64,000 nt of DNA from Promethearchaeota archaeon (GCA_048937405.1 JBHLNF010000001.1:784785-848784), one strand, 5' to 3'; shown: positions 5,506 to 62,526, numbered from the stretch's first letter. Program-made: numbers and translations. Notes: generated from the sequence alone by a model not told the origin.

Positions 5506-6255
5506 ATGGTTAAAATAGGTATAATTGGGGGTTCGGGATTAGATAATCCGGACATTTTAAAAGATGATAGAGATATTGAAGTTGATACTCCATATGGTAA
5601 ACCTTCATCTCCTTTAAAGATTGGAAAGATCGAGAATGTTGATGTAGTTCTCATAGCTAGACATGGAAGAGAACATACCATTCCACCAACATATGTGAAT
5701 TACAGAGCTAATATACAAGCATTGAAGGATCAGGACTGTACACATATTATAGCTACTACAGCTTGTGGAAGCTTACGAGAAAAAATTGGTAGAGGAGATT
5801 TAGTAATTGTTGACCAATTTATTGACTTTACTAGACTCAGAAAAATCACCTTTTTTGATGAGTTCCCTCCTGGTGATGCCAAACATACACCGATGGCATA
5901 TCCTTATTCAAGTGAGTTAAGAAAAATCCTTATTGAAACAGCAAAAGAACTTAATCTTAAACACCATGAAAAAGGGACCGTAATTACTATTGAAGGACCA
6001 AGGTTTTCCACTAGAGCGGAATCAGAAATGTTTCGAATTTGGGGTGCTGATGTTATAAATATGAGTATTGCTCCAGAGACAATTTTAGCAAATGAAGCAT
6101 CTATACCTTATGCTGCAGTTGCTATGTCTACAGATTATGATTGTTGGAAAGATGATGAAGTGCCCGTAACTTGGGAAGAAATCTTGGAAATTTTTGGCAA
6201 AAATGTTAGTAATGTCATTGCTTTAATAACTAATTGTATAAAGAAAATACAATAA
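5506..6255 (+). CDS. mtnP: 5'-methylthioadenosine phosphorylase (second paralogue)
   Basis: KIGIIGGSG, TPYGKPS, ARHGREH, NYRANI, EGPRFSTRAES, TDYDCW. Likely ATG at 5506. Confidence 0.92.
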   Translation: MVKIGIIGGSGLDNPDILKDDRDIEVDTPYGKPSSPLKIGKIENVDVVLIARHGREHTIPPTYVNYRANIQALKDQDCTHIIATTACGSLREKIGRGDLVIVDQFIDFTRLRKITFFDEFPPGDAKHTPMAYPYSSELRKILIETAKELNLKHHEKGTVITIEGPRFSTRAESEMFRIWGADVINMSIAPETILANEASIPYAAVAMSTDYDCWKDDEVPVTWEEILEIFGKNVSNVIALITNCIKKIQ

Positions 6256-6446
6256 TTTTTTTTTTAAGAAATTCTTTTTTTTTTCCAGAAATATTTGATA
6301 TTAGAATGAGTGTAAAAAATGTATAATTATTTGGAGGAATTTGTAAAAGATTGATTATTGTATTTGATAAGATTATTATTTTTTCATTTGTTTAAAGTAT
6401 ATAACTATTCTTATGAAGCTTAAAATAACTAAAGAGTAATTTAAAA

Positions 6447-7754
6447 ATGGTAAACATTTCATTTCTTGGTGGATGCAGAGAAGTCGGACGTAGTGCTATA
6501 TTAATCGAATCAAAAAGTGGGGCTAAATGCATGTTAGATTATGGGATAAGATTTCATGGAGAAGAGAGACTCCCTTATAATACGAATATAGATAATCTAA
6601 AAGCTGTTGCTTTAACTCATTGCCATATTGATCATTCTGGTGCATTACCTTTTTTGTTTAAGACCAAAAAAATCCCTCTTCTTACAAATTCAATTACATT
6701 AGCTATATCTGAAATTCTAATTAAAGACATGATTAAAATATCAAATTTCAATTATCCATTTGGCTATCGAGAATTAGATTATTTAATACAAAATTCCATT
6801 TTTCTAAAAAATGGGAATCGTCAAAAGATTCATGATAACTTTTACCTAACATTTATTGATGCGGGGCATATTCCAGGAAGTGTTTCCATTTTAATTGAAG
6901 TGGATAATAAAAAAATTTTATACACAGGAGATATCAATTCACAAATTACTAATTTAGTAAATCCAGCAAATCCTAATAATGGTCATGAGATCGATAGTGT
7001 AATCATGGAATCTACTTATGCTCTTAAGGAACATCCTCCAAGAGAACAATTAGAAAAAGAATTTGTGGAAAAAATTATTAACATTACTGATAATGGAGGG
7101 AAAGTGTTAATTCCAGCATTCGGAGTTGCACGCTCTCAGGAAACGTTACTAATTTTGGAAAAATATGATTATAATGGAAATATATTTATTGATGGTTTAG
7201 CAAGAAAAATATCAATGTTATATTTAGATTACCCTAATTTTTTAAAAAATATTAAACAATTCAAAAAAGCTTTAAAGAAAACTCAATTTGTTTCTAAACC
7301 CAAAACTAGATCAACTATCAAAAACACAAACGGAGTTATAATATCCCCTTCTGGGATGCTTAAAGGAGGCATAGCAATTGATTATATTCAATCAATATTA
7401 CCAGATCATTCTTCAGCAGTTTATTTAGTTGGATATCAAGTGGAAGGAACTCCAGGAAGAAAATTGTTAGATGAAGGAATTTTTGAATTTAAAGAATCAA
7501 GAAAAAATAGGAAAATTTCATTGGATTTAAAAATTAAAGCAAAATGCGACTATGATTACTTTGATTTTTCTAGTCATTCTGATAATAGTCATATTCATAA
7601 ATATATTGAAAATTTAAAATTTAAAGAGAATTCAAATAGAGATATTTTCTGTGTTCATGGAGATAATAAATCCACCACTCGCTTAGCAAGTGAATTGGTT
7701 AAAAAAAAATACAATTCAGTAGCTCCTGAAACAGGAGAAGTATATCATGTTTAG
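6447..7754 (+). CDS. Beta-CASP metallo-beta-lactamase ribonuclease (CPSF-like, no KH domains)
   Basis: LGGCREVGRS, THCHIDH, AGHIPGS, YTGD, ESTY, PAFGVARSQE, FSSH, VHG. Confidence 0.92.
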   Translation: MVNISFLGGCREVGRSAILIESKSGAKCMLDYGIRFHGEERLPYNTNIDNLKAVALTHCHIDHSGALPFLFKTKKIPLLTNSITLAISEILIKDMIKISNFNYPFGYRELDYLIQNSIFLKNGNRQKIHDNFYLTFIDAGHIPGSVSILIEVDNKKILYTGDINSQITNLVNPANPNNGHEIDSVIMESTYALKEHPPREQLEKEFVEKIINITDNGGKVLIPAFGVARSQETLLILEKYDYNGNIFIDGLARKISMLYLDYPNFLKNIKQFKKALKKTQFVSKPKTRSTIKNTNGVIISPSGMLKGGIAIDYIQSILPDHSSAVYLVGYQVEGTPGRKLLDEGIFEFKESRKNRKISLDLKIKAKCDYDYFDFSSHSDNSHIHKYIENLKFKENSNRDIFCVHGDNKSTTRLASELVKKKYNSVAPETGEVYHV

Positions 7755-10465: not shown

Positions 10466-11599
10466 TCACATATTATTTATTTCTGTTTCATATTTTAATA
10501 TTTCATCGTCAGTAATATCGCGATCAAATTTGATTTTCTTTTGAATTCCTAAGTAGGCGCAAGCTAATTTAGCAGCAGCAGCAACTTCTGCTTTTTTAAG
10601 TGTTATAGAATATTCATCCTGTTGAACAGGATCATCTTCATATGGATTTTCTTGATACTTTCTTTCATTAAATCTAACGGATCTTTCACTTTTCATTTTA
10701 TATAACAATGAAGACATTTTATTTGCTACTTTAAATGGTAATTGATTTTTAACTACCAATCGAATAATGTTATTGACATCAAAATAGTTTAAAGATTCAT
10801 ACTTAGCGCGAAGAAAGCTTTTAAGATTTTCCGAATTTTTTTCACATTCAATCTCAGTCCAATCATGAATAGCGAGTTTTCTTCGAAAAAATATTACTTC
10901 CCAGTCTATATTTAGTTCTTTCAATAACTCAAATAATAAATTATCATTCGGTTTTCTTGATTCTATAATTACGTAAAGTTGAAGTCCATAGTATTTGTGT
11001 TCTTGCTGAAGAAAAAAACCTCTTTGTTGCATAGAAGCAAGAATCAACACTTTTATGGAATATATATTTTCGGAAATATTTTTTTTTCCACAATTTAAAT
11101 ATATAACATTACCTTCTTCACTGATATATTCACAGTCTAAAAATCCTAATATGCTTTCCTTATTACTTTTGATAAAATCTAACAGTCCAGTAAGTGTTGG
11201 TTTAACATCATATTTAACTAAATCATTTTCACCAATTGTGACATAATCATTATAATTACTACCAACGGCTAATTTAATAGAATTTAATTTTAAATCTTTA
11301 TCAGCGCCAAAAACTTTCAGAAAAGCTTCATTAATAGGTAAGATTTCGTCTTCTAAAATTTTAACGTCGGCAATAGAGCTCTCATAAGGTTCTGGTTCAC
11401 TTAGTATCTTATTTAGCACAGGTGCTTCGGAGGCATCAACTTCAATTTCATATGATTTTGCCAGATCCTTTCGTATTATACAGAATGCTCTTTTCTTTTT
11501 ATTAAAAATAGAAATTGAAGAATTGTCGTCTATGACTGCTCTAAATTTTTCAATGAACTTACTTTCTGTTGTGTCTGAACCTACTCTTCTTCTTCGAAT
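10466..11599 (-). CDS. Hypothetical protein (~377 aa), probable non-canonical ATT start
   Basis: The frame stays open 60 codons upstream of the ORF-track GTG (11419) with protein-like sequence (IRRRRVGSDTTESKFIEKFRAVID...). The first start-like codon is ATT at 11599, 5 nt after an SD-like GGTTGAT. Confidence 0.7.
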   Translation of the reverse strand: MRRRRVGSDTTESKFIEKFRAVIDDNSSISIFNKKKRAFCIIRKDLAKSYEIEVDASEAPVLNKILSEPEPYESSIADVKILEDEILPINEAFLKVFGADKDLKLNSIKLAVGSNYNDYVTIGENDLVKYDVKPTLTGLLDFIKSNKESILGFLDCEYISEEGNVIYLNCGKKNISENIYSIKVLILASMQQRGFFLQQEHKYYGLQLYVIIESRKPNDNLLFELLKELNIDWEVIFFRRKLAIHDWTEIECEKNSENLKSFLRAKYESLNYFDVNNIIRLVVKNQLPFKVANKMSSLLYKMKSERSVRFNERKYQENPYEDDPVQQDEYSITLKKAEVAAAAKLACAYLGIQKKIKFDRDITDDEILKYETEINNM

Positions 11600-11793
11600 T
11601 TTTTATCAACCAATTATTATTTAAAATAACTTCTTTCAGTTAATTAATGTATAAAATTATTATTTTATATTCTTAACTAAAAAATATTATAAGAATTTTC
11701 TTTTTAGAATTAAAAATATAATAGCCAAAATGATAACTGATTTTTAAAAATGAATTGATAAATTAAAGTTTATTAATAAAACCATTTAAATTT

Positions 11794-52925: not shown

Positions 52926-53567
52926 ATGGCTATTAATTTAGGAGAAAATCCATGGATTTTAATAAGTTTAATATTTTTGGAATTTTTGTTAATTATTATA
53001 CCCGCTTTAGTATCCAGTAAATTGGAAAAAAGACCATTTCAAGATATAATAAAAGAAATGGGTTTTCAAAAAGATAATGACCTGCTTATAAAAATTATAT
53101 CAGGAATATCTCTTGGAATAATTTTTTTCTTTCTTGGTACTTATATCATAATATTTTTTAGAGATTTTATTGTTAAGAATCTATTTGGTTCCGATTTTGT
53201 TAAAACTGGTAAAGAAGGCACTATTAGCACAGGACCAATGCAACCTAATACTACTCAACTAGTAATACTTATAATCTTAAATTTGATTATTACGGGACCT
53301 TGTGAAGAAGCTTTTTTTAGAGGATTTCTTATTAAAAAGTTTGAAATCAAATTTAAAATGAGTTACAGTACTTTCTTTTCATCGATTATTTTTACTCTTT
53401 ATCATATTCCTCCATTTTTGGTGCCTATAACTACAATAGTTACATATTTTGGATATTATTTTGCATTTGGGGTGCTACTTTCACTTGTATTTGTCTATTT
53501 CAAATATTCTTTAATTCCTTGTTCAATAGCTCATTCTTGTTTCAATATTCTGATTTTATTAATATAA
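52926..53567 (+). CDS. CPBP/Abi-family intramembrane metalloprotease
   Basis: EEAFFRG, FTLYH, IAHSCFN all intact. Confidence 0.92.
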   Translation: MAINLGENPWILISLIFLEFLLIIIPALVSSKLEKRPFQDIIKEMGFQKDNDLLIKIISGISLGIIFFFLGTYIIIFFRDFIVKNLFGSDFVKTGKEGTISTGPMQPNTTQLVILIILNLIITGPCEEAFFRGFLIKKFEIKFKMSYSTFFSSIIFTLYHIPPFLVPITTIVTYFGYYFAFGVLLSLVFVYFKYSLIPCSIAHSCFNILILLI

Positions 53568-53691: not shown

Positions 53692-54216
53692 ATGACAAAT
53701 TACGACTATACATTTAAAATAATGATGCTAGGTGACGCATCAGTAGGTAAAACATCGCTTACTATGAGATATATTTCTGGATATTTCATGGAAGACCTCA
53801 AATTAACTATCGGAGTAGATTTTTATAGTAAGACAACCTCATTTAATGATAAAAAAGTCAAATTGCAGATTTGGGATTTTGGAGGAGAAGAACGATTTCG
53901 GTTTTTACTTTCTCAATATAGTAAAGGTGCAAATGGGGCATTTTTTTTGTATGATATTACTAATCAAACATCTTTAGATCATCTACCAGATTGGACTCAA
54001 GTAATTAGAGAACATGCAGGGGAAATTCCTATAATGTTAATTGGTTCGAAGGTTGATTTACATGAATTCCGTTCTGTATCTCGTGATGACGGAATATTAG
54101 CAGCAAAGAAATACAATCTTTCTTCTTTTGTGGAATTATCTTCTAAAACAGGAGAGAACGTCGAGAAAGCTTTTAATGTAATGACAGAAATTCTTTTTGA
54201 AAAGTATGAACATTAG
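53692..54216 (+). CDS. Rab-like small GTPase
   Basis: YDYTFKIMMLGDASVGKTS, TIGVDF, LQIWDFGGEERFR, YDIT, SSKTGENV. Confidence 0.95.
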   Translation: MTNYDYTFKIMMLGDASVGKTSLTMRYISGYFMEDLKLTIGVDFYSKTTSFNDKKVKLQIWDFGGEERFRFLLSQYSKGANGAFFLYDITNQTSLDHLPDWTQVIREHAGEIPIMLIGSKVDLHEFRSVSRDDGILAAKKYNLSSFVELSSKTGENVEKAFNVMTEILFEKYEH

Positions 54217-54336: not shown

Positions 54337-54870
54337 TTGACTGAAATAAACAAAGAAGAACCACCAAGACCTGAAGGACTAAAATTACATTCTAAAGCAC
54401 CTCAAATAGATACAACAGATATATATGACAATCCTGTTAAACTAGATAAGCTGTTATTGTCCTATAATGGTGTTTTAATTGATTTTTTTCGAGGAAATTG
54501 GTGAAGTCACTGTAAAATGCATTTAAAACTCTTAACTGAACATATCTCTGAATTTAATGATAAAAAAATTAAATTACTTTCAATTGCTAGCGATAGTGTC
54601 AGACTTTTAAGGAAATTTAAAGAAGAAAATGAGTTTGTGATTGATATGATTTCTGATAGAGGAGCTAAAATTGCTAAACAATATGATGTTTACTGGTTTG
54701 CTCCTGGAGGAGGAAAAGATTATAAAATAAAACAAGCGGTGCCTAGTAAATTTCTTATAAATAATAACGGTGAAATTATCTGGAAATATATCGGAAAAGA
54801 TAAAACTGATAGACCTTCGATTGATATGATGATGAGTATAATTGATAAATTTATTACAAATCCCAAATAA
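54337..54870 (+). CDS. Selenocysteine-containing peroxiredoxin-like (AhpC/TSA, thioredoxin-fold) protein
   Basis: The frame is open from TTG 54337 (or GTG 54328): ...KAPQIDTTDIYDNPVKL...LIDFFRGNW-TGA(54502)-SHC-KMHL... This gives a UxxC motif in frame with the ORF-track 54517..54870 fragment. Confidence 0.92.
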
Positions 54871-55832: not shown

Positions 55833-56387
55833 ATGACATTAAATGCTTTCTTAGAATTAGATAATCAGCAGAGTAAAAAGGACTTCAGTTTTAAAAGTAT
55901 ATATGATTTTTCTCCACCCCCTTTTATTGGGTGTATCTTATCAGATAAAGAAGGAAAAACAATTGCATTATTTGAGAGTCATAAGGGAGCTTTAGAATTT
56001 TATCTTAAAAACAATATGAAAGATCCATCAAAAAGTGAATGTTTTAATATTGAACTCATTCCTATGTTTATAAGTGCCTTAGAAAGATTTTCAGAAGAAA
56101 TTAATATTCAAGATGTGCCCTGTATTAATCTTAAAGGAATTAATATCAAATTACATTCTATTTTTGATTTAGATAATTTTATTGTTATATTCTTCCTAAA
56201 TCCATACGTTCATATTAAATCGTTTGAAAATTTAATACATAATTATTTTATAAATCTTTATGATGATTATAGATGTGAATTTAATGATATCAAGAAATTA
56301 AGCTCATTAAATTTCATAAATAGCCTAGAAAATCTTGGAATGGAATGGATAAAGCATTTAAACAATCTATTTTTAGAAAGAATATAA
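55833..56387 (+). CDS. Hypothetical protein, possible longin/roadblock-like fold
   Basis: FIGCILSDKEGKTI...LIPMFISALERFSEEI pattern; likely ATG at 55833 rather than TTG 55743. Confidence 0.6.
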   Translation: MTLNAFLELDNQQSKKDFSFKSIYDFSPPPFIGCILSDKEGKTIALFESHKGALEFYLKNNMKDPSKSECFNIELIPMFISALERFSEEINIQDVPCINLKGINIKLHSIFDLDNFIVIFFLNPYVHIKSFENLIHNYFINLYDDYRCEFNDIKKLSSLNFINSLENLGMEWIKHLNNLFLERI

Positions 56388-56700
56388 AAATTTAATAAAT
56401 TATATACTGAAAAATATATCTCTATTCATCTTAGAGTCAATGCTAATTCAATATAAAGGATTATTAAATTGACCCTAAAGTCTTAATATGGTTAGAAACG
56501 ATTCTGTCTCAACCAATTTCTTTAAATCTTTCTATGAAGCCATATATTAGTTATATTGGGAATAGGAACTCTTTGAATAAATATCGTTATACTAATACGA
56601 ATAATTGATAAAAATATAAATTTTTATAATAAAGATTTTATTAGTAGATTGAGAATTTTCTAAAATTTTATGATTAATCTTTGTCTGGAGAAAAACCAAT

Positions 56701-57255
56701 TTGAGACAAGTAAAAGGAACGATGCTTTTAATGATTATAAAGTCAATTAAAGCAAATTATATTAAAATTGGTGAATATAATGGGATCCTTTCAGACAAAG
56801 CAAAAGAATTCCTTACACATAGAATTTTGAGTACGTCTTGGTATCCATTTGAAGTATATCGAGAACTTTATGATGCTTTATGTCTTATTGAAGCCCGAAA
56901 TGATCCAAAAATCTTAGAGCAATGGGGTATAATTGAATCAAAACGTATGTTTTCAACAACTTATCAGTCTATTGCTGTTAAAGAAGATCTTCAAATGGCT
57001 ATTGAAGGATACACACGTTTTCAAAGAAGGATTTTTAATTTTGGTGATATTATTTTCGAATTCATTTCTGATAACGAAGTAATGTTTTCATATAAAGACA
57101 TGCCTCTTGATTGGGAAAATTTCTATTACACAGCAGTGGGATATTTGAAAGGATTTTTGGAATTATGTGTTGATAAAAAGGTTGATTCGTCCTTTTTAAA
57201 AAAATCTTGGAAAGGGGAAAGTTCGACTGAAATCAAAATTTCATGGTCTCTTTAA
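56701..57255 (+). CDS. H-NOX/V4R-fold-like protein, array copy 1 (His108 to Gln)
   Basis: 184 aa; VKG, RIL..SWYP, NFG, KSW motifs shared with six neighbours. Confidence 0.8.
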   Translation: MRQVKGTMLLMIIKSIKANYIKIGEYNGILSDKAKEFLTHRILSTSWYPFEVYRELYDALCLIEARNDPKILEQWGIIESKRMFSTTYQSIAVKEDLQMAIEGYTRFQRRIFNFGDIIFEFISDNEVMFSYKDMPLDWENFYYTAVGYLKGFLELCVDKKVDSSFLKKSWKGESSTEIKISWSL

Positions 57256-57509
57256 ATAATTTAGAATTCCTAAAGTTAAAACTAAATTTGTTATTACCCT
57301 TTAAATTGAGATAATCTTGGAGAGATACTTTGTACAATTCTAAAAAATTAATCTGTCATTAGATTTACAAAAAGGTTCATAATAATCAAAAAAAATAAAA
57401 TGAACTTCATTTCGTAAAAAAACTTTATATAAATGAATTTACAATATAATTTTGTAAAACTCTTCATAAAAAATAATAAATTTTAAATATTAATATAAAG
57501 GGGATTTAT

Positions 57510-58064
57510 TTGAAACAAGTAAAAGGATCAATGGCGGTAACGATTATAAAGAATATTAAAACAAGTCCTAAAGGATTGGGACCATATAACCAGATTCTTT
57601 CAGATAAAGCAAAAGAGTTACTTAATCGAAGGATTCTTGCTGGATCATGGTATCCTTATGATGCATATAGAGAATGTTTTGATGCTTTATGTTTAATTGA
57701 AGCAAAAAATAATCCAAAGACCTTAACAGAATGGGGTTTAAATGAGTCTAAAGTTTGGCTTTCAACTGTTTACCAATCTACTATTGATAAAGGAAACCTT
57801 CAAGCGCTTACTACACAATATACACGTTTTCATAGATTGGTTTTTAATTTTGGAGAAATCATAGCAAAATTTCTCTCTGATACAGAAATAGAATTTACAT
57901 ATGTAGATCTTCCTCGTGATTGGTCAAATTATTATTACATAGCACTGGGGTGGATAATTTCATTTGTCGAGGCTACTGTTAACAAAAAAGTCGATTATGT
58001 CTTTCTTAATAAATCATGGGAAAGAGGAGGCTGGACTAAACTCAAGTTTTCATGGTCTCCTTGA
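57510..58064 (+). CDS. H-NOX/V4R-fold-like protein, array copy 2
   Basis: 184 aa paralogue; RFH, YVDLPR. Confidence 0.8.
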   Translation: MKQVKGSMAVTIIKNIKTSPKGLGPYNQILSDKAKELLNRRILAGSWYPYDAYRECFDALCLIEAKNNPKTLTEWGLNESKVWLSTVYQSTIDKGNLQALTTQYTRFHRLVFNFGEIIAKFLSDTEIEFTYVDLPRDWSNYYYIALGWIISFVEATVNKKVDYVFLNKSWERGGWTKLKFSWSP

Positions 58065-58416
58065 AAAGTATATGAACCTATACATTAGAAATGAAGGCTC
58101 AAATCGGATAAGAACAAATATACCTTTAAAGAATTCTCAAAATTATTTTATTATTCTAAAAACATTTTTATTAAGTAGATTTCTAAAAAAGTTTATGAAT
58201 ATATTCTGTTAAAAAAGCACGAAATTTCTGCATAAATAAAGGTTTATATAATTAGACTTAAACTATGATTTTAGAAAACTCTTTAAAATTTCTATAATGT
58301 CTAAGTTAAATTGGATAATCTTAAGAAAGTATAAATTATGTCAACTAGCTTAGATTATTTTAGATAATTTTAGATTAGTTAAACTATATTTAGTTAGGAA
58401 AAATAAGGGGATTTAT

Positions 58417-58971
58417 GTGAAAAAAGTAAAAGGATCGTTAATAATAACGATTGTAAAATCAATTAAAACAAGCCCTAAAGGATGGGTTGAATATGACAGA
58501 ATACTTTCAAACCAAGCAAAAGAATTTCTTAAAAAAAGAATTCTGACAGGATCATGGTATCCTTTGGAAGACTATAGAGAATGTTTTGACTCAGTATGTT
58601 TTGTTGAAGCACGAAATAATCAGAAAATCATTCTCGAATGGTCTATAAGGGAAGCAAATCGTTGGCTTACAACACTTTATCAGGCTATTGTTCTTAAGGG
58701 AGACCTTGAAATGGCTATAGAGAAATACCAACGTTTACACAGGAGATTTTTTAATTTCGGTGAAATTATAACAAATTTCATCTCTGATAATAAGATAGAG
58801 TTAATTTACATAGATATTCCTCGTGATTGGGAAAATTGGTATCAGTCAGCAGTAGGATGGGCAATGGCATTTATTAAATTATGTATTGACAAAGAAATTG
58901 ATTATACATTCTTAAATAAATCATGGGTGAATGGTGGTTGGACTACAATCAAGTTTTCATGGTCTCCTTGA
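58417..58971 (+). CDS. H-NOX/V4R-fold-like protein, array copy 3
   Basis: 184 aa paralogue; RLH, YIDIPR. Confidence 0.8.
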   Translation: MKKVKGSLIITIVKSIKTSPKGWVEYDRILSNQAKEFLKKRILTGSWYPLEDYRECFDSVCFVEARNNQKIILEWSIREANRWLTTLYQAIVLKGDLEMAIEKYQRLHRRFFNFGEIITNFISDNKIELIYIDIPRDWENWYQSAVGWAMAFIKLCIDKEIDYTFLNKSWVNGGWTTIKFSWSP

Positions 58972-59113
58972 AAATGCTCTGAATACATAAATTAAAATTA
59001 AAGGTTTCAATCATTAAATAACATGCTTTTCTTTAAGAGATGTTTTAAATCGTTTTACTAATTTCTAACAATTTTAATTAATTTTAATTGAGAAAAAAGC
59101 CGTGAAATTATTA

Positions 59114-59190
59114 TGTTAAAATGACACGAAATAAATGTATATATATAAATTTTTATAGTCAAATAAATACTATATTTCTGAAAAACTCTC
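59114..59190 (+). promoter_or_regulatory. Conserved upstream module of array genes (example: copy 4)
   Basis: TGTTAAAA-N-CACGAAA, then TTTTATA ~26 nt after CACGAA, then GAAAAACTC ~29 nt later. Also present at 58207, 60722 and 61551, and as a variant at 56586. Confidence 0.75.
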
Positions 59191-59323
59191 TAAAATTACT
59201 TAATTCTCTAAGTAAAATTAGATAATTCTATATAAGAATATATTTGAAAACAATAACTTAGACTATTTTAGGTTTTTCAGATTAGTTAAAATAAGTTTAA
59301 ATAGGAAAAATGTGGGGATTTGA

Positions 59324-59878
59324 ATGAACAAAGTAAAAGGAACGATGCTCTTAATGATTGTAAAATCAATTAAAGCAGATCGGTCTAAAAAAGGTAAATA
59401 CGATCAGTTACTTTCAGAGAAAGGAAAAGAATTTCTTCAACAAAGAATTCTGTCAGCATCATGGTATCCTATGGGATATTATAGAGAATGCTTTGATGCT
59501 TTATGTTTAGTTGAAGCAAAAAATGATCCAAAAACCTTAATTAAATGGGGCTATTTGGAAGGAAAACGTTGGCTAACAACGATTTACAAATCTACTGTTT
59601 TCAAAGGAGATTTGCACCAGGCTATTGAAAAATATACTCGCTTTCACGATATGTTATTTAATTTTGGTAAAATTGTACCAAGTTTCAACTCGGGTACAGA
59701 GCTAGAAGTAACATATATGGATATTCCTCGTGATTGGAAAAATTGGTATTATACGGCATTAGGATGGGCAATGGTGTTTATAGAATTATGTATTGACAAA
59801 AAAGCCGACTATACATTCTTAAATAAATCATGGGTGAATGGAGGTTGGACTAAAATCAAATTTTCATGGACCTATTAA
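59324..59878 (+). CDS. H-NOX/V4R-fold-like protein, array copy 4
   Basis: 184 aa paralogue; RFH, YMDIPR. Confidence 0.8.
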   Translation: MNKVKGTMLLMIVKSIKADRSKKGKYDQLLSEKGKEFLQQRILSASWYPMGYYRECFDALCLVEAKNDPKTLIKWGYLEGKRWLTTIYKSTVFKGDLHQAIEKYTRFHDMLFNFGKIVPSFNSGTELEVTYMDIPRDWKNWYYTALGWAMVFIELCIDKKADYTFLNKSWVNGGWTKIKFSWTY

Positions 59879-60029
59879 AAAATTTGGAAATTTATCAGAA
59901 AATGAAAAAGATCTGAAAAAAATAGAGATTTTAAAATTAGTATGCTTATTAGACCATTTTGAAGGATTATCTATAAATCTTTATTAGGTTATAATTCTTT
60001 ATATTAATTTGGTAAGGTGGGATATTTAT

Positions 60030-60584
60030 ATGAAACAAGTAAAAGGAACTTTATTATTAACAATTGTAAAGATACTTAAAGCAAGAAATCGAACTAGTGG
60101 TTATTATAATAGTGCTCTTTCAGATAATGCAAAAACATTTCTTGAGCGAAGAATACTTACAGGATCATGGTATCCTTTAGAATATTATAGAGAATTATTT
60201 GATACTTTATGTTCTGTTGACGCAAAAAATGATCCAAAAACTTTAATCGAATGGGGTTTGGAAGAAGGAAAGCAATGGTTTACAACAATTTACCAGTCCG
60301 CTATTGTTGAGGGGGATCTTGAATCGGCTATTGAGAGATATAAACGTTTTCATAAAAAAGTTTTTAATTTTGGTGAAGTTAAAGTAGAAGCCATCTCTGA
60401 TACGGAATTAGAATTTACTTATGTAGATATGCCTCAAGATTGGAAAAATTATTATTACACATCATTAGGATACGCATTAGTATTTATTGAACTATGTGTT
60501 GGAAAAAAACCTGAATATTTCTTTCAAAATAAATCATGGGAAAGGGGAGGTTGGACTAAAACGAGGTTTTCTTGGGTTCCTTAA
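60030..60584 (+). CDS. H-NOX/V4R-fold-like protein, array copy 5
   Basis: 184 aa from ATG 60030 (start corrected by alignment to paralogues); RFH, YVDMPQ. Confidence 0.8.
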   Translation: MKQVKGTLLLTIVKILKARNRTSGYYNSALSDNAKTFLERRILTGSWYPLEYYRELFDTLCSVDAKNDPKTLIEWGLEEGKQWFTTIYQSAIVEGDLESAIERYKRFHKKVFNFGEVKVEAISDTELEFTYVDMPQDWKNYYYTSLGYALVFIELCVGKKPEYFFQNKSWERGGWTKTRFSWVP

Positions 60585-60858
60585 GAAATCTCTAAATTCA
60601 CAGGTTGGAATTGAAACTTTCAATTTGCATAAAAATAAGGTTATCTCGATATAAATTCTTTAAATCATTCTAAATCAATCTCCACTTCAGATAATCTCCA
60701 AAAGAGATTATGATTATTTTCTATTAAAATCACACGAAATTTTGGTTTATATGAAACTTTTTATAATCCATCTTATATTATAATTTTGAAAAACTCTCTA
60801 AACACTCTTCGTTAGGTTAAGTTTGTTTAGATTAATTAAAAATAAGAAGGATATTTAT

Positions 60859-61413
60859 TTGAAACAAGTAAAAGGAACAGTATTGATAACGATTGTGAAG
60901 TCAATAAAGGTAAACCATAATAAAAGAGCGGAATATGATAGAATACTTTCAGACAGAGCAAAAGAATTTCTTAAAAAAAGAATTTTAAATGCATCGTGGT
61001 ATCCTTTTGATATATTACGGGAACTTTTAGACGCTATGTGTTTAGTTGAAGGAGGAAATGACCCAAAAATCTTAGTTGAATGGGGACGTATTGATGGAAA
61101 ACGTTGGTTTACAACAGTTTATCAGGCTATTATTCTTAAGGGAGATCTTGAACTGGCTATAGAGAAATACCAGCGTTTTCACAGAAAGGTTTATAATTTT
61201 GGTGAGGTTATAGTTAAATTTATTTCTGATACAGAATTAGAATTTACTTATGTAGATCTGCCTCGCGATTGGGAAAATTATTATCACATAACAGCAGGAT
61301 GGGCAAAATCATTTGTAGAATTATGTCTTGGTAAAGAAGCTGATTATATGTTCATAAATAAGTCCTGGAAGGGAGAAGGTTGGACTAAAACAAGAATTTA
61401 TTGGGGTCCTTAA
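60859..61413 (+). CDS. H-NOX/V4R-fold-like protein, array copy 6
   Basis: 184 aa from TTG 60859 (start corrected by alignment); RFH, YVDLPR. Confidence 0.8.
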   Translation: MKQVKGTVLITIVKSIKVNHNKRAEYDRILSDRAKEFLKKRILNASWYPFDILRELLDAMCLVEGGNDPKILVEWGRIDGKRWFTTVYQAIILKGDLELAIEKYQRFHRKVYNFGEVIVKFISDTELEFTYVDLPRDWENYYHITAGWAKSFVELCLGKEADYMFINKSWKGEGWTKTRIYWGP

Positions 61414-61700
61414 ATAATTTACAATAAGATTATTTCAAACTAAATATTCTTATTAGTTATAAAAAAAATGTATTTTAAGGAGTTTTTTTAAATCCACTTA
61501 AAAGCAATTATCATTTCATCTGGTTAGTAGAATATTTTATAGATTTTTTATGTTAAATTAACACGAACTTACGAGTTTAAAAATAAATTTTTATAAATAG
61601 GTTTATACTATCATTTTGAAAACTCATCTAAACTTTTTTTTAAAATAAGTTAGTTTAGGTTAATTTAATTATTATTATTTAATTAGGACAGGGGATTTGT

Positions 61701-62255
61701 TTGAAACAAGTAAAGGGAGTAGTAATAATATCGATTGTAAAGTCGATTAAAGCAAACCATCAAAAAAGGGATGAATATGACAGAATACTTTCAGTTAAAG
61801 CAAAAGAATTTCTTAAGCAACGAATTCTGCCAGGATCATGGTATCCTTTTGAAGAATATCGAGAATGTTATGATGCTTTATGTTATGTAGAAGCCAGAAA
61901 TAATCCAAAAACTATTGTCGAATGGGGTATGACGGATGGAAAAAGTACATTTTTATCAACATATCAGTCTACAGTTATTAAAGAAGATATCCAACTTGCG
62001 GTTGAGAGATATGTACGATTTCACAGAAGAACTATGAATATTGGAGAAATTGTAACAGAAATCATCTCTGATAACGAAGTAAAATTTGCTTATACAAAAA
62101 TGCCGCGTGAATGGGAAAATTGGTATCATACAGCTGTAGGGTGGGCAATTTCATTTATAGGATTGTGTCTTAATAGACAAATAGATTACACTTATTTAAA
62201 TAAATCATGGAAAAACGAAGGTTGGACTGAAGTTAAATTTTCGTGGTCTTCTTGA
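61701..62255 (+). CDS. H-NOX/V4R-fold-like protein, array copy 7
   Basis: 184 aa paralogue; RFH, YTKMPR. Confidence 0.8.
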   Translation: MKQVKGVVIISIVKSIKANHQKRDEYDRILSVKAKEFLKQRILPGSWYPFEEYRECYDALCYVEARNNPKTIVEWGMTDGKSTFLSTYQSTVIKEDIQLAVERYVRFHRRTMNIGEIVTEIISDNEVKFAYTKMPREWENWYHTAVGWAISFIGLCLNRQIDYTYLNKSWKNEGWTEVKFSWSS

Positions 62256-62319: not shown

Positions 62320-62526
62320 TTATACTAGTCCAATAGCAATTTTCATATCTGCAGCGGTTACTTTCTTTCTACCAGAGTGTTTTGCAATATCAAGCGCACA
62401 GCCAGTCAAACTTTTGGCATATTCTTCTAAATAATCCATTAATTTGTCAACTGCGGCTCGACTTACAATTTCTGCTCCGGCTTTCTTCATTAAAGCCCGT
62501 AAAGGACTCCATGCAAATGCGGCCAT
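62320..62526 (-). CDS. Archaeal histone (HMf-like, no tail)
   Basis: RALMKKAGAEIVSRAAV...AKHSGRKKVTAADM. Confidence 0.95.
   Translation of the reverse strand: MAAFAWSPLRALMKKAGAEIVSRAAVDKLMDYLEEYAKSLTGCALDIAKHSGRKKVTAADMKIAIGLV

Follow-up and report, generated by a model that had tools for sequence, protein, structure and literature searches.

A tandem array of stand-alone H-NOX-fold proteins in an Asgard archaeon, candidate heme-independent relatives of the DUF2378 family

The array and its history

We analyzed a 64,000-nucleotide stretch of a Promethearchaeota archaeon genome (GCA_048937405.1, JBHLNF010000001.1:784785-848784; hereafter the window) and studied an array of seven co-oriented open reading frames (ORFs) on its plus strand, each 555 nt long and encoding 184 amino acids (aa) from a common MKQVKG start. 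The copies are located at 56701–57255 (copy 1), 57510–58064 (copy 2), 58417–58971 (copy 3), 59324–59878 (copy 4), 60030–60584 (copy 5), 60859–61413 (copy 6), and 61701–62255 (copy 7). Their alignment has 184 gapless columns, 44 of them invariant, and the pairwise identities are 48–62%, confirming the claim of an initial annotation, made from the DNA by itself, that the locus contains seven equally long paralogs without indels but with many substitutions. The residues it listed as unchanging (V4 K5 G6, S46 W47 Y48 P49, C61, W75, Y131, G147, and K168 S169 W170) are all present in all seven copies. A profile of the array family scores each copy at E 1e-97 to 1e-101, and the similarity is far beyond chance.

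Translation starts of the array are mostly non-ATG: copies 1, 2, 6, and 7 start with TTG and copy 3 with GTG, while copies 4 and 5 start with ATG. A GGGGAT-like Shine–Dalgarno sequence precedes the start of every copy. For copies 5 and 6, the ORF listing places the start farther upstream, at TTG codons at 60009 and 60823, respectively; we preferred the shorter starts, at 60030 and 60859, because the conserved Shine–Dalgarno sequence lies 6–7 nt before them. The non-ATG bias recurs in loci L009–L011 of related genomes, where each start likewise follows the ribosome-binding site, and among 33 homologs we counted 18 TTG, 5 GTG, and 8 ATG starts (23 of 33 TTG or GTG). The bias may reflect tuned or low translation.

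The spacers contain repeated promoter-like modules. Upstream of copy 1, at 56596–56628 on the plus strand, a YACGAA box is followed 25 nt downstream by a TATA-like box, TTTTTATA. Repeat-family analysis placed further YACGAA and TATA-like modules at 58218–58250, 59125–59157, 60733–60765, and 61562–61595, bringing the count to five of the seven spacers (repeat families D4, D6–D8, and D11); the spacer of copy 2 contains a TATA-like box alone, at 57424. The recurrence of the modules points to separate promoters for the genes of the array.

A search by alignment identified four related loci, all in metagenome-assembled genomes (MAGs) of Asgard archaea. Related MAGs share the locus, in which the gene order is NurA, Rce1-like protease, Ras-like GTPase, variable small ORFs, a 184–185-aa protein, the array, a histone, and a metallophosphoesterase. 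The array comprises 7 copies in the window, 11 in L009, 8 in L011, and 1 in L014. L009 is a short contig starting just upstream of the gene for the 184–185-aa protein, and its left flank is thus outside the assembled sequence. In a second type of locus, four copies (L010) or a single copy (L015) follow an unrelated 387-aa gene. In L010 this gene, directly upstream of the array at 6000–7163, contains beta/gamma-crystallin repeats (Pfam Crystall, E 9.8e-29), while its counterpart in L015 (5892–7055) has no Pfam match.

A profile search of the window's own genome (G000; 4.47 Mb in 29 contigs, marker completeness 100%) found an eighth paralog on another contig (C25, locus L018, 9423–9986, minus strand). 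A lokiactin gene on the same strand (10570–11715, minus strand; Pfam Actin, E 1.4e-132) lies 584 nt upstream of it, and a leucine-rich repeat protein and a ferric-reductase-like flavoprotein are encoded nearby. We considered the 387-aa genes of the second locus type as possible relatives of this actin gene and found them not to be related. The Asgard origin given by the initial annotation fits the data, as all close homologs are from Promethearchaeota or Lokiarchaeota MAGs and the genome encodes lokiactin.

In a maximum likelihood tree, the copies of the window never cluster together. Well-supported orthologs of copies 2, 3, 4, 5, and 7 exist in L009, L011, or both, with identities reaching 90%: copy 2 pairs with L009_c1 (the 90% case) and L011_c2, copy 3 with L011_c4, copy 4 with L009_c2 and L011_c5, copy 5 with L011_c7, and copy 7 with L009_c10. 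The ortholog pairs have synonymous divergences (dS) of 0.14–0.56 and ratios of nonsynonymous to synonymous divergence (dN/dS) of 0.20–0.43. The tree and the orthologs together indicate that the duplications predate the species, without concerted evolution, and that each paralog has been maintained singly. Recent duplication and concerted evolution are ruled out by the tree, and a set of pseudogenes or decaying repeats by the intact frames and the dN/dS of the orthologs. The same data fit the earlier description of the array as a diversified repertoire built on one scaffold.

The survey of Asgard genomes that the initial annotation had proposed produced a patchy picture: the family is found in 9 of the 301 Asgard species genomes searched and, within the window's own family, in 10 of 100 genomes, including 4 of 30 in the same genus and all 5 of a second one (g7). 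The number of copies varies from 1 to 18 across genomes, and the family is an accessory and expansion-prone one. The largest numbers come from genus g7, in which genomes G270 and G307 have 18 and 13 matches on several contigs. These represent a diverged subfamily, and many of the matches contain one in-frame stop; they may be pseudogenes, or slightly shorter genes past whose ends the profile match runs on. The base composition of the array equals that of the neighboring host genes, giving no compositional sign of a recent horizontal transfer.

Fold and family relationships

To characterize the fold, we used an AlphaFold2 model of copy 6, computed from an alignment of 27 Lokiarchaeal homologs and predicted with a mean local distance difference test score (pLDDT) of 95.6 and a template modeling score (pTM) of 0.90. 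The top Foldseek matches of the model were the H-NOX proteins of Nostoc and T. tengcongensis (E 1e-6, template modeling [TM] score 0.70), with the MopR/PoxR phenol sensors and TRAPP Bet3 below them. In VIA-align, the H-NOX structures reached Z scores of 13.3 and 13.2 over 172–173 residues, with residues 4–184 of the model aligned to chain residues 1–180/183. A plateau at Z of about 10–11 followed, consisting of YslB, TRAPPC, the VirS ligand domain, the V4R protein MJ1460, BcsD, and the Thorarchaeota TRAPPC3. As modeled, the array protein has a complete two-lobe H-NOX architecture, more than the core shared by V4R and Bet3. The initial annotation had proposed an H-NOX-type fold with V4 as H-NOX residue 1 and a comparison of the predicted fold with H-NOX and V4R; the model agrees on the fold and on V4, and in the comparison it matches H-NOX best, followed by V4R, TRAPP Bet3, YslB, and BcsD. 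In the ESM Atlas, the nearest structures were Myxococcota clusters of hypothetical proteins (TM 0.87), followed at TM 0.77–0.79 by clusters partly annotated as DUF2378 or V4R, one chemoreceptor fusion among them.

At the sequence level, the seven copies are outside the curated families. In the Pfam and NCBIfam copies searched, no model matched any of them, V4R included, and HNOB and DUF2378 (PF09536) gave no hit even at E ≤ 1; and a sequence search of the Protein Data Bank (PDB) with the seven-sequence profile returned nothing useful. A set of 5.8 billion proteins contained approximately 22 close homologs, all from Promethearchaeota MAGs and listed without a functional name. An exhaustive HMMER search extended the family to 278 cluster representatives at E ≤ 1e-3. 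The nearest relatives are from other Lokiarchaeota, followed by Desulfococcus, Alcanivoracaceae, and a deltaproteobacterium, the last annotated as "TIGR02265 family." Among 104 full-length relatives scanned, 28 matched DUF2378 (PF09536 at E < 0.1, best 1.3e-9), 13 HNOB, and 8 V4R. The division of the relatives among the three models places the array family between them and closest to DUF2378, the link of the window copies to DUF2378/TIGR02265 being transitive, through intermediates.

The domain context of the distant relatives is typical of a sensory input module: we found fusions to a Ser/Thr kinase, PilZ, a receiver domain, or a chemoreceptor, and some proteins with two or three tandem repeats. 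The extensions in relatives P0112, P0081, P0076, and P0114 contain no meaningful Pfam domain, and no fused form was found within the close Lokiarchaeal clade, in a search that is weak evidence on the matter. The array proteins themselves are stand-alone. The initial annotation had reported neither an output domain nor an adjacent kinase or cyclase, and the ORF and domain scans of the window agree; there is also no partner chemoreceptor gene near the array.

We consider the array family best read as a Lokiarchaeia-specific branch of DUF2378/TIGR02265 inside the H-NOX/V4R/Bet3 fold superfamily. The initial annotation had mentioned heme-free V4R/DUF2378-like proteins as its alternative to heme sensors. 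This alternative is the better supported of the two by the family matches, although the window copies have no direct Pfam match of their own.

The heme question

The initial annotation favored heme-based sensors of gases or other small ligands and placed H108 at the position of the proximal His of H-NOX. The sequence features that it described are real. H108 is present in six of the seven copies, with Gln in copy 1 only, and is the sole His of copies 2, 3, and 5; in place of the Y-x-S-x-R motif that binds the heme propionates, the array has Y-x-D-x-P-R, with the variants YKDMPL in copy 1, YVDMPQ in copy 5, and YTKMPR in copy 7. In its fullest form, the explanation would make the proteins true H-NOX-type gas or redox sensors based on heme, another tetrapyrrole, or a metal, with H108 as the proximal ligand and Y131 and R136 holding the propionates.

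The architecture is the first point in its favor, as the model is full-length H-NOX and its best structural matches are all H-NOX. A HMMER profile of the wide family aligns to residues 1–107 of the T. tengcongensis H-NOX, though weakly (E 0.04–0.08), and in this alignment the proximal H102 pairs with the column of H108; the aligned ranges in VIA-align agree with the pairing. Within the Lokiarchaeal clade, H108 is retained in 32 of 33 sequences, copy 1 being the sole exception, and Y131 in 29 of 33, its pairing with the H-NOX Tyr depending on a hand alignment of strand beta2.

R106 and Y104 are almost as well conserved in the same 33 sequences. The conservation of H108 does not extend to the wider family, however: among 97 wider relatives, column 108 has Trp in 36, Phe in 13, Arg in 13, and His in 8. 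The motif R-F-H at 106–108 is limited to the nearest Lokiarchaeal subclade, and the distribution of residues indicates that the His is derived and not ancestral. The Y-x-S-x-R motif is altered at both of its other key positions. The position of the Ser (133) is Asp in 26, Asn in 5, and Lys in 2 of the 33 sequences; the position of the Arg (135) is Pro in 25, and an Arg is found one residue on, at 136, in only 20. An acidic residue at the position of the Ser would be expected to repel the heme propionates.

The genome provides a further test. HNOB (PF07700) had no match anywhere in it, nor had HemB (PF00490), HemC (PF01379), or HemD (PF02602), despite the marker completeness of 100%; as a control, the hem searches gave matches in 11–12 of 14 control genomes. 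With HemB, HemC, and HemD missing, heme would have to be scavenged for eight paralogs by an organism without tetrapyrrole synthesis. Considering also the Gln of copy 1, the failure of HNOB to match any copy, and the missing partner genes nearby, the data do not support the identification as heme or gas sensors, and we regard it as quite unlikely.

Proposed ligand binding, neighboring genes, and related systems

We favor, with a probability of about 0.58, the explanation that the seven genes and the eighth paralog encode stand-alone, heme-independent ligand-binding proteins, a branch of DUF2378/TIGR02265, that pass on a signal or a cargo through protein contacts. Going by the model, each protein would retain the two lobes of H-NOX, helical at the N terminus and alpha/beta at the C terminus, and a small molecule would be held in the cleft between them. 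The conserved polar and aromatic core, consisting of Y104, R106, H108, Y131, Y142, K168, and T176, may anchor a common part of the ligands or stabilize the fold. Ligand specificity could be tuned by the residues that differ between paralogs. We found 12 positions that are fixed within ortholog groups and differ between groups (40, 50, 71, 80, 84, 93, 110, 111, 120, 127, 143, and 179), and at many of them hydrophobic residues of different sizes replace one another on what would be helices alphaE, alphaF, and alphaG, which in H-NOX line the pocket. Lacking an output domain, the proteins would transmit the signal or cargo by contact with other proteins. The array itself would stem from ancient tandem duplications at one fixed locus, with a separate promoter for every gene, and the purifying selection on each copy, together with the separate promoters, suggests that the copies are not redundant.

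Several observations weigh against this explanation. We know of no ligand for any DUF2378 member, and the term "sensor" draws on the fold and on the domains to which distant relatives are fused. The near-invariance of H108, R106, and Y104 in the Lokiarchaeal clade, with H108 as the only His of three copies, would also fit the binding of a cofactor or metal. Lastly, the patchy distribution and the swings in copy number are compatible with other roles.

One such role is that of a fast-turnover accessory family not involved in sensing, for example carriers or chaperones of hydrophobic metabolites or lipids, in the manner of palmitate in Bet3, or a conflict-related repertoire. The sparse presence (9 of 301 Asgard genomes; 4 of 30 within the genus) and the range of 1 to 18 copies are as expected for such a family, the array proteins are aromatic-rich and mildly basic (isoelectric point about 9), and the cavities of Bet3 and PoxR bind hydrophobic ligands (PMC10933270). 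Against this explanation, none of the PADLOC defense-system models matched, the composition is that of the host genes, and the orthologs are under purifying rather than diversifying selection. We consider the explanation unlikely, while noting that a carrier role overlaps with the ligand-binding proteins that we favor and is inseparable from them by sequence.

The genes flanking the array provide a different context. Immediately upstream, at 55833–56387 on the plus strand, is a gene for a 184-aa longin-fold protein, syntenic in L009, L011, and L014. Its model is of moderate confidence (pLDDT 71.8) and matches the VAMP7 longin at Z 10.8, Mon1–Ccz1 at 10.3, a Lokiarchaeota longin at 10.0, and the TRAPP subunits sedlin, Bet5, and synbindin at 7.6–8.3. 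Approximately 1.6 kb upstream of this gene, and part of the conserved left flank, is a Ras/Rab-like small GTPase of 174 aa (53692–54216, plus strand; Pfam Ras, E 4.5e-47). The right flank is conserved as an archaeal histone (62320–62526, minus strand). The longin and GTPase neighbors had gone unmentioned in the initial annotation.

Two other genes upstream of the array are worth recording. Directly upstream of the GTPase, at 52926–53567, is an Rce1-like gene of the CPBP (CAAX-protease) family that is retained in L011 and L014; the GTPase itself ends in ...FEKYEH and has no CAAX box. At 54337–54870 (plus strand), the ORF caller cut short an AhpC/TSA-type redoxin. Reading the TGA as selenocysteine gives a protein of 177 aa with FFRGNW-U-SHC at the peroxiredoxin active site, and the gene likely encodes a selenoprotein.

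The building blocks of TRAPP (longin, small GTPase, and Bet3-superfamily fold) lie close together here, which suggests a neighborhood hypothesis, if by a weak link. The array proteins could be TRAPP-like or guanine nucleotide exchange factor-like adaptor subunits that pair with the longin-fold protein to regulate the Ras/Rab-like GTPase, the paralogs differing in specificity. Eukaryotic TRAPP is indeed built of Bet3-family and longin subunits and acts on Rab1 (PMC10933270), and both partners have structural counterparts here, the longin-fold protein through its matches to Mon1–Ccz1, sedlin, Bet5, and synbindin, and the array protein through its matches to TRAPPC3, C5, and C6 and the Thorarchaeota TRAPPC3 (Z 9.6–10.6). 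The order GTPase, longin-fold gene, and array is shared by the window, L011, and L014; in L009 the longin-fold gene directly precedes the array, and the contig ends before the GTPase would appear.

The syntenic genomes are close relatives by the dS of their orthologs, however, and the shared gene order is not independent evidence. Longin orthologs are found without an array in genomes G195, G329, and G331, which rules out an obligate coupling, and arrays are found without a longin in L010 and L015, at the eighth copy next to actin, and in genus g7. Bet3 structures align with only the C-terminal ~130 residues, at scores lower than those of H-NOX, and none of the relatives searched turned out to be fused to a longin or a GTPase. 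Moreover, such neighbors are abundant, with figures of 37 Rab-like proteins and 41 longin domains given for Loki genomes (PMC10933270). A role as TRAPP-like subunits therefore seems very unlikely.

An extension of the favored ligand-binding explanation would combine it with this neighborhood, the array serving as a collection of small-molecule receptors that dock onto the longin-fold protein and the GTPase to form a ligand-gated module that controls the GTPase and resembles a precursor of TRAPP, with each paralog adding another input. A variant has the clade-specific H108 ligating scavenged heme or metal, and the proteins would then be the first archaeal H-NOX-type gas or redox sensors. We hold the receptor module and the variant jointly to be a long shot. 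The conserved position beside the longin and GTPase genes nevertheless provides a rare and concrete hypothesis by which, in Lokiarchaeia, a fold of the Bet3 superfamily would be tied to regulators of GTPases. For the cultured Lokiarchaeon MK-D1, a recent structural survey reported that genes for small GTPases generally do not share operons with those for roadblock, longin, or TRAPPC3 proteins (PMC10933270).

The heme-independent ligand-binding proteins that we favor can be compared with four known systems. TRAPP Bet3 (PF04051; TRAPPC3/5/6, and the Thorarchaeota TRAPPC3 in PDB 7yh2) shares the superfamily fold over ~127–136 residues and occurs in Asgard archaea; the array, for its part, lies beside a longin-fold gene and a small GTPase gene. 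The match is partial and lower, however, with no signal at the sequence level, and where Bet3 has its dimerizing N-terminal helices, the array protein has a helical lobe of the H-NOX type.

The V4R proteins (PF02830), including the phenol sensors MopR, PoxR, and DmpR as well as MJ1460, are small-molecule sensors and share the C-terminal alpha/beta lobe, with a profile match to MopR 139–191 at E 0.019 and structural Z scores of 9.5–10.2. Unlike the array proteins, they lack a complete N-terminal H-NOX lobe, and the Cys zinc site of V4R is replaced here: the columns aligned to MopR C155, C181, and C189 are the invariant Y142, K168, and T176. The Cys triad is retained in 15 of 97 distant relatives.

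H-NOX (HNOB, PF07700; Nostoc, T. tengcongensis, and the beta1 subunit of soluble guanylate cyclase) is the system most similar in two-lobe architecture and length; its MKG-type N-terminus aligns with that of the array, and the Lokiarchaeal clade has a His at the proximal column. The sequences are only 9–19% identical, none of the copies reaches the gathering score of HNOB, the Ser and Arg of Y-x-S-x-R are absent, and the His is not ancestral. The host also differs in having no tetrapyrrole genes and no kinase, cyclase, or chemoreceptor beside the array.

Lastly, DUF2378/TIGR02265 (PF09536), the Myxococcus paralogous family, has been described as exclusive to myxobacteria (PMC9257966). The array proteins differ from it in being archaeal, in the missing Pfam or TIGRFAM match, and in the clade-specific R-F-H motif and Y/K/T triad. 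In other respects the two agree: both are stand-alone proteins of ~180–200 aa present in multiple copies per genome and belonging to the same fold superfamily, the DUF2378 model is the commonest among the relatives, and the closest ESM Atlas neighbors are from Myxococcota. The occurrence of a complete H-NOX architecture in an archaeon, within a lineage akin to a family previously regarded as limited to myxobacteria, extends the H-NOX/V4R/DUF2378 superfamily beyond its known range and provides a compact and highly expandable set of candidate receptors for Asgard biology that can be expressed and tested.

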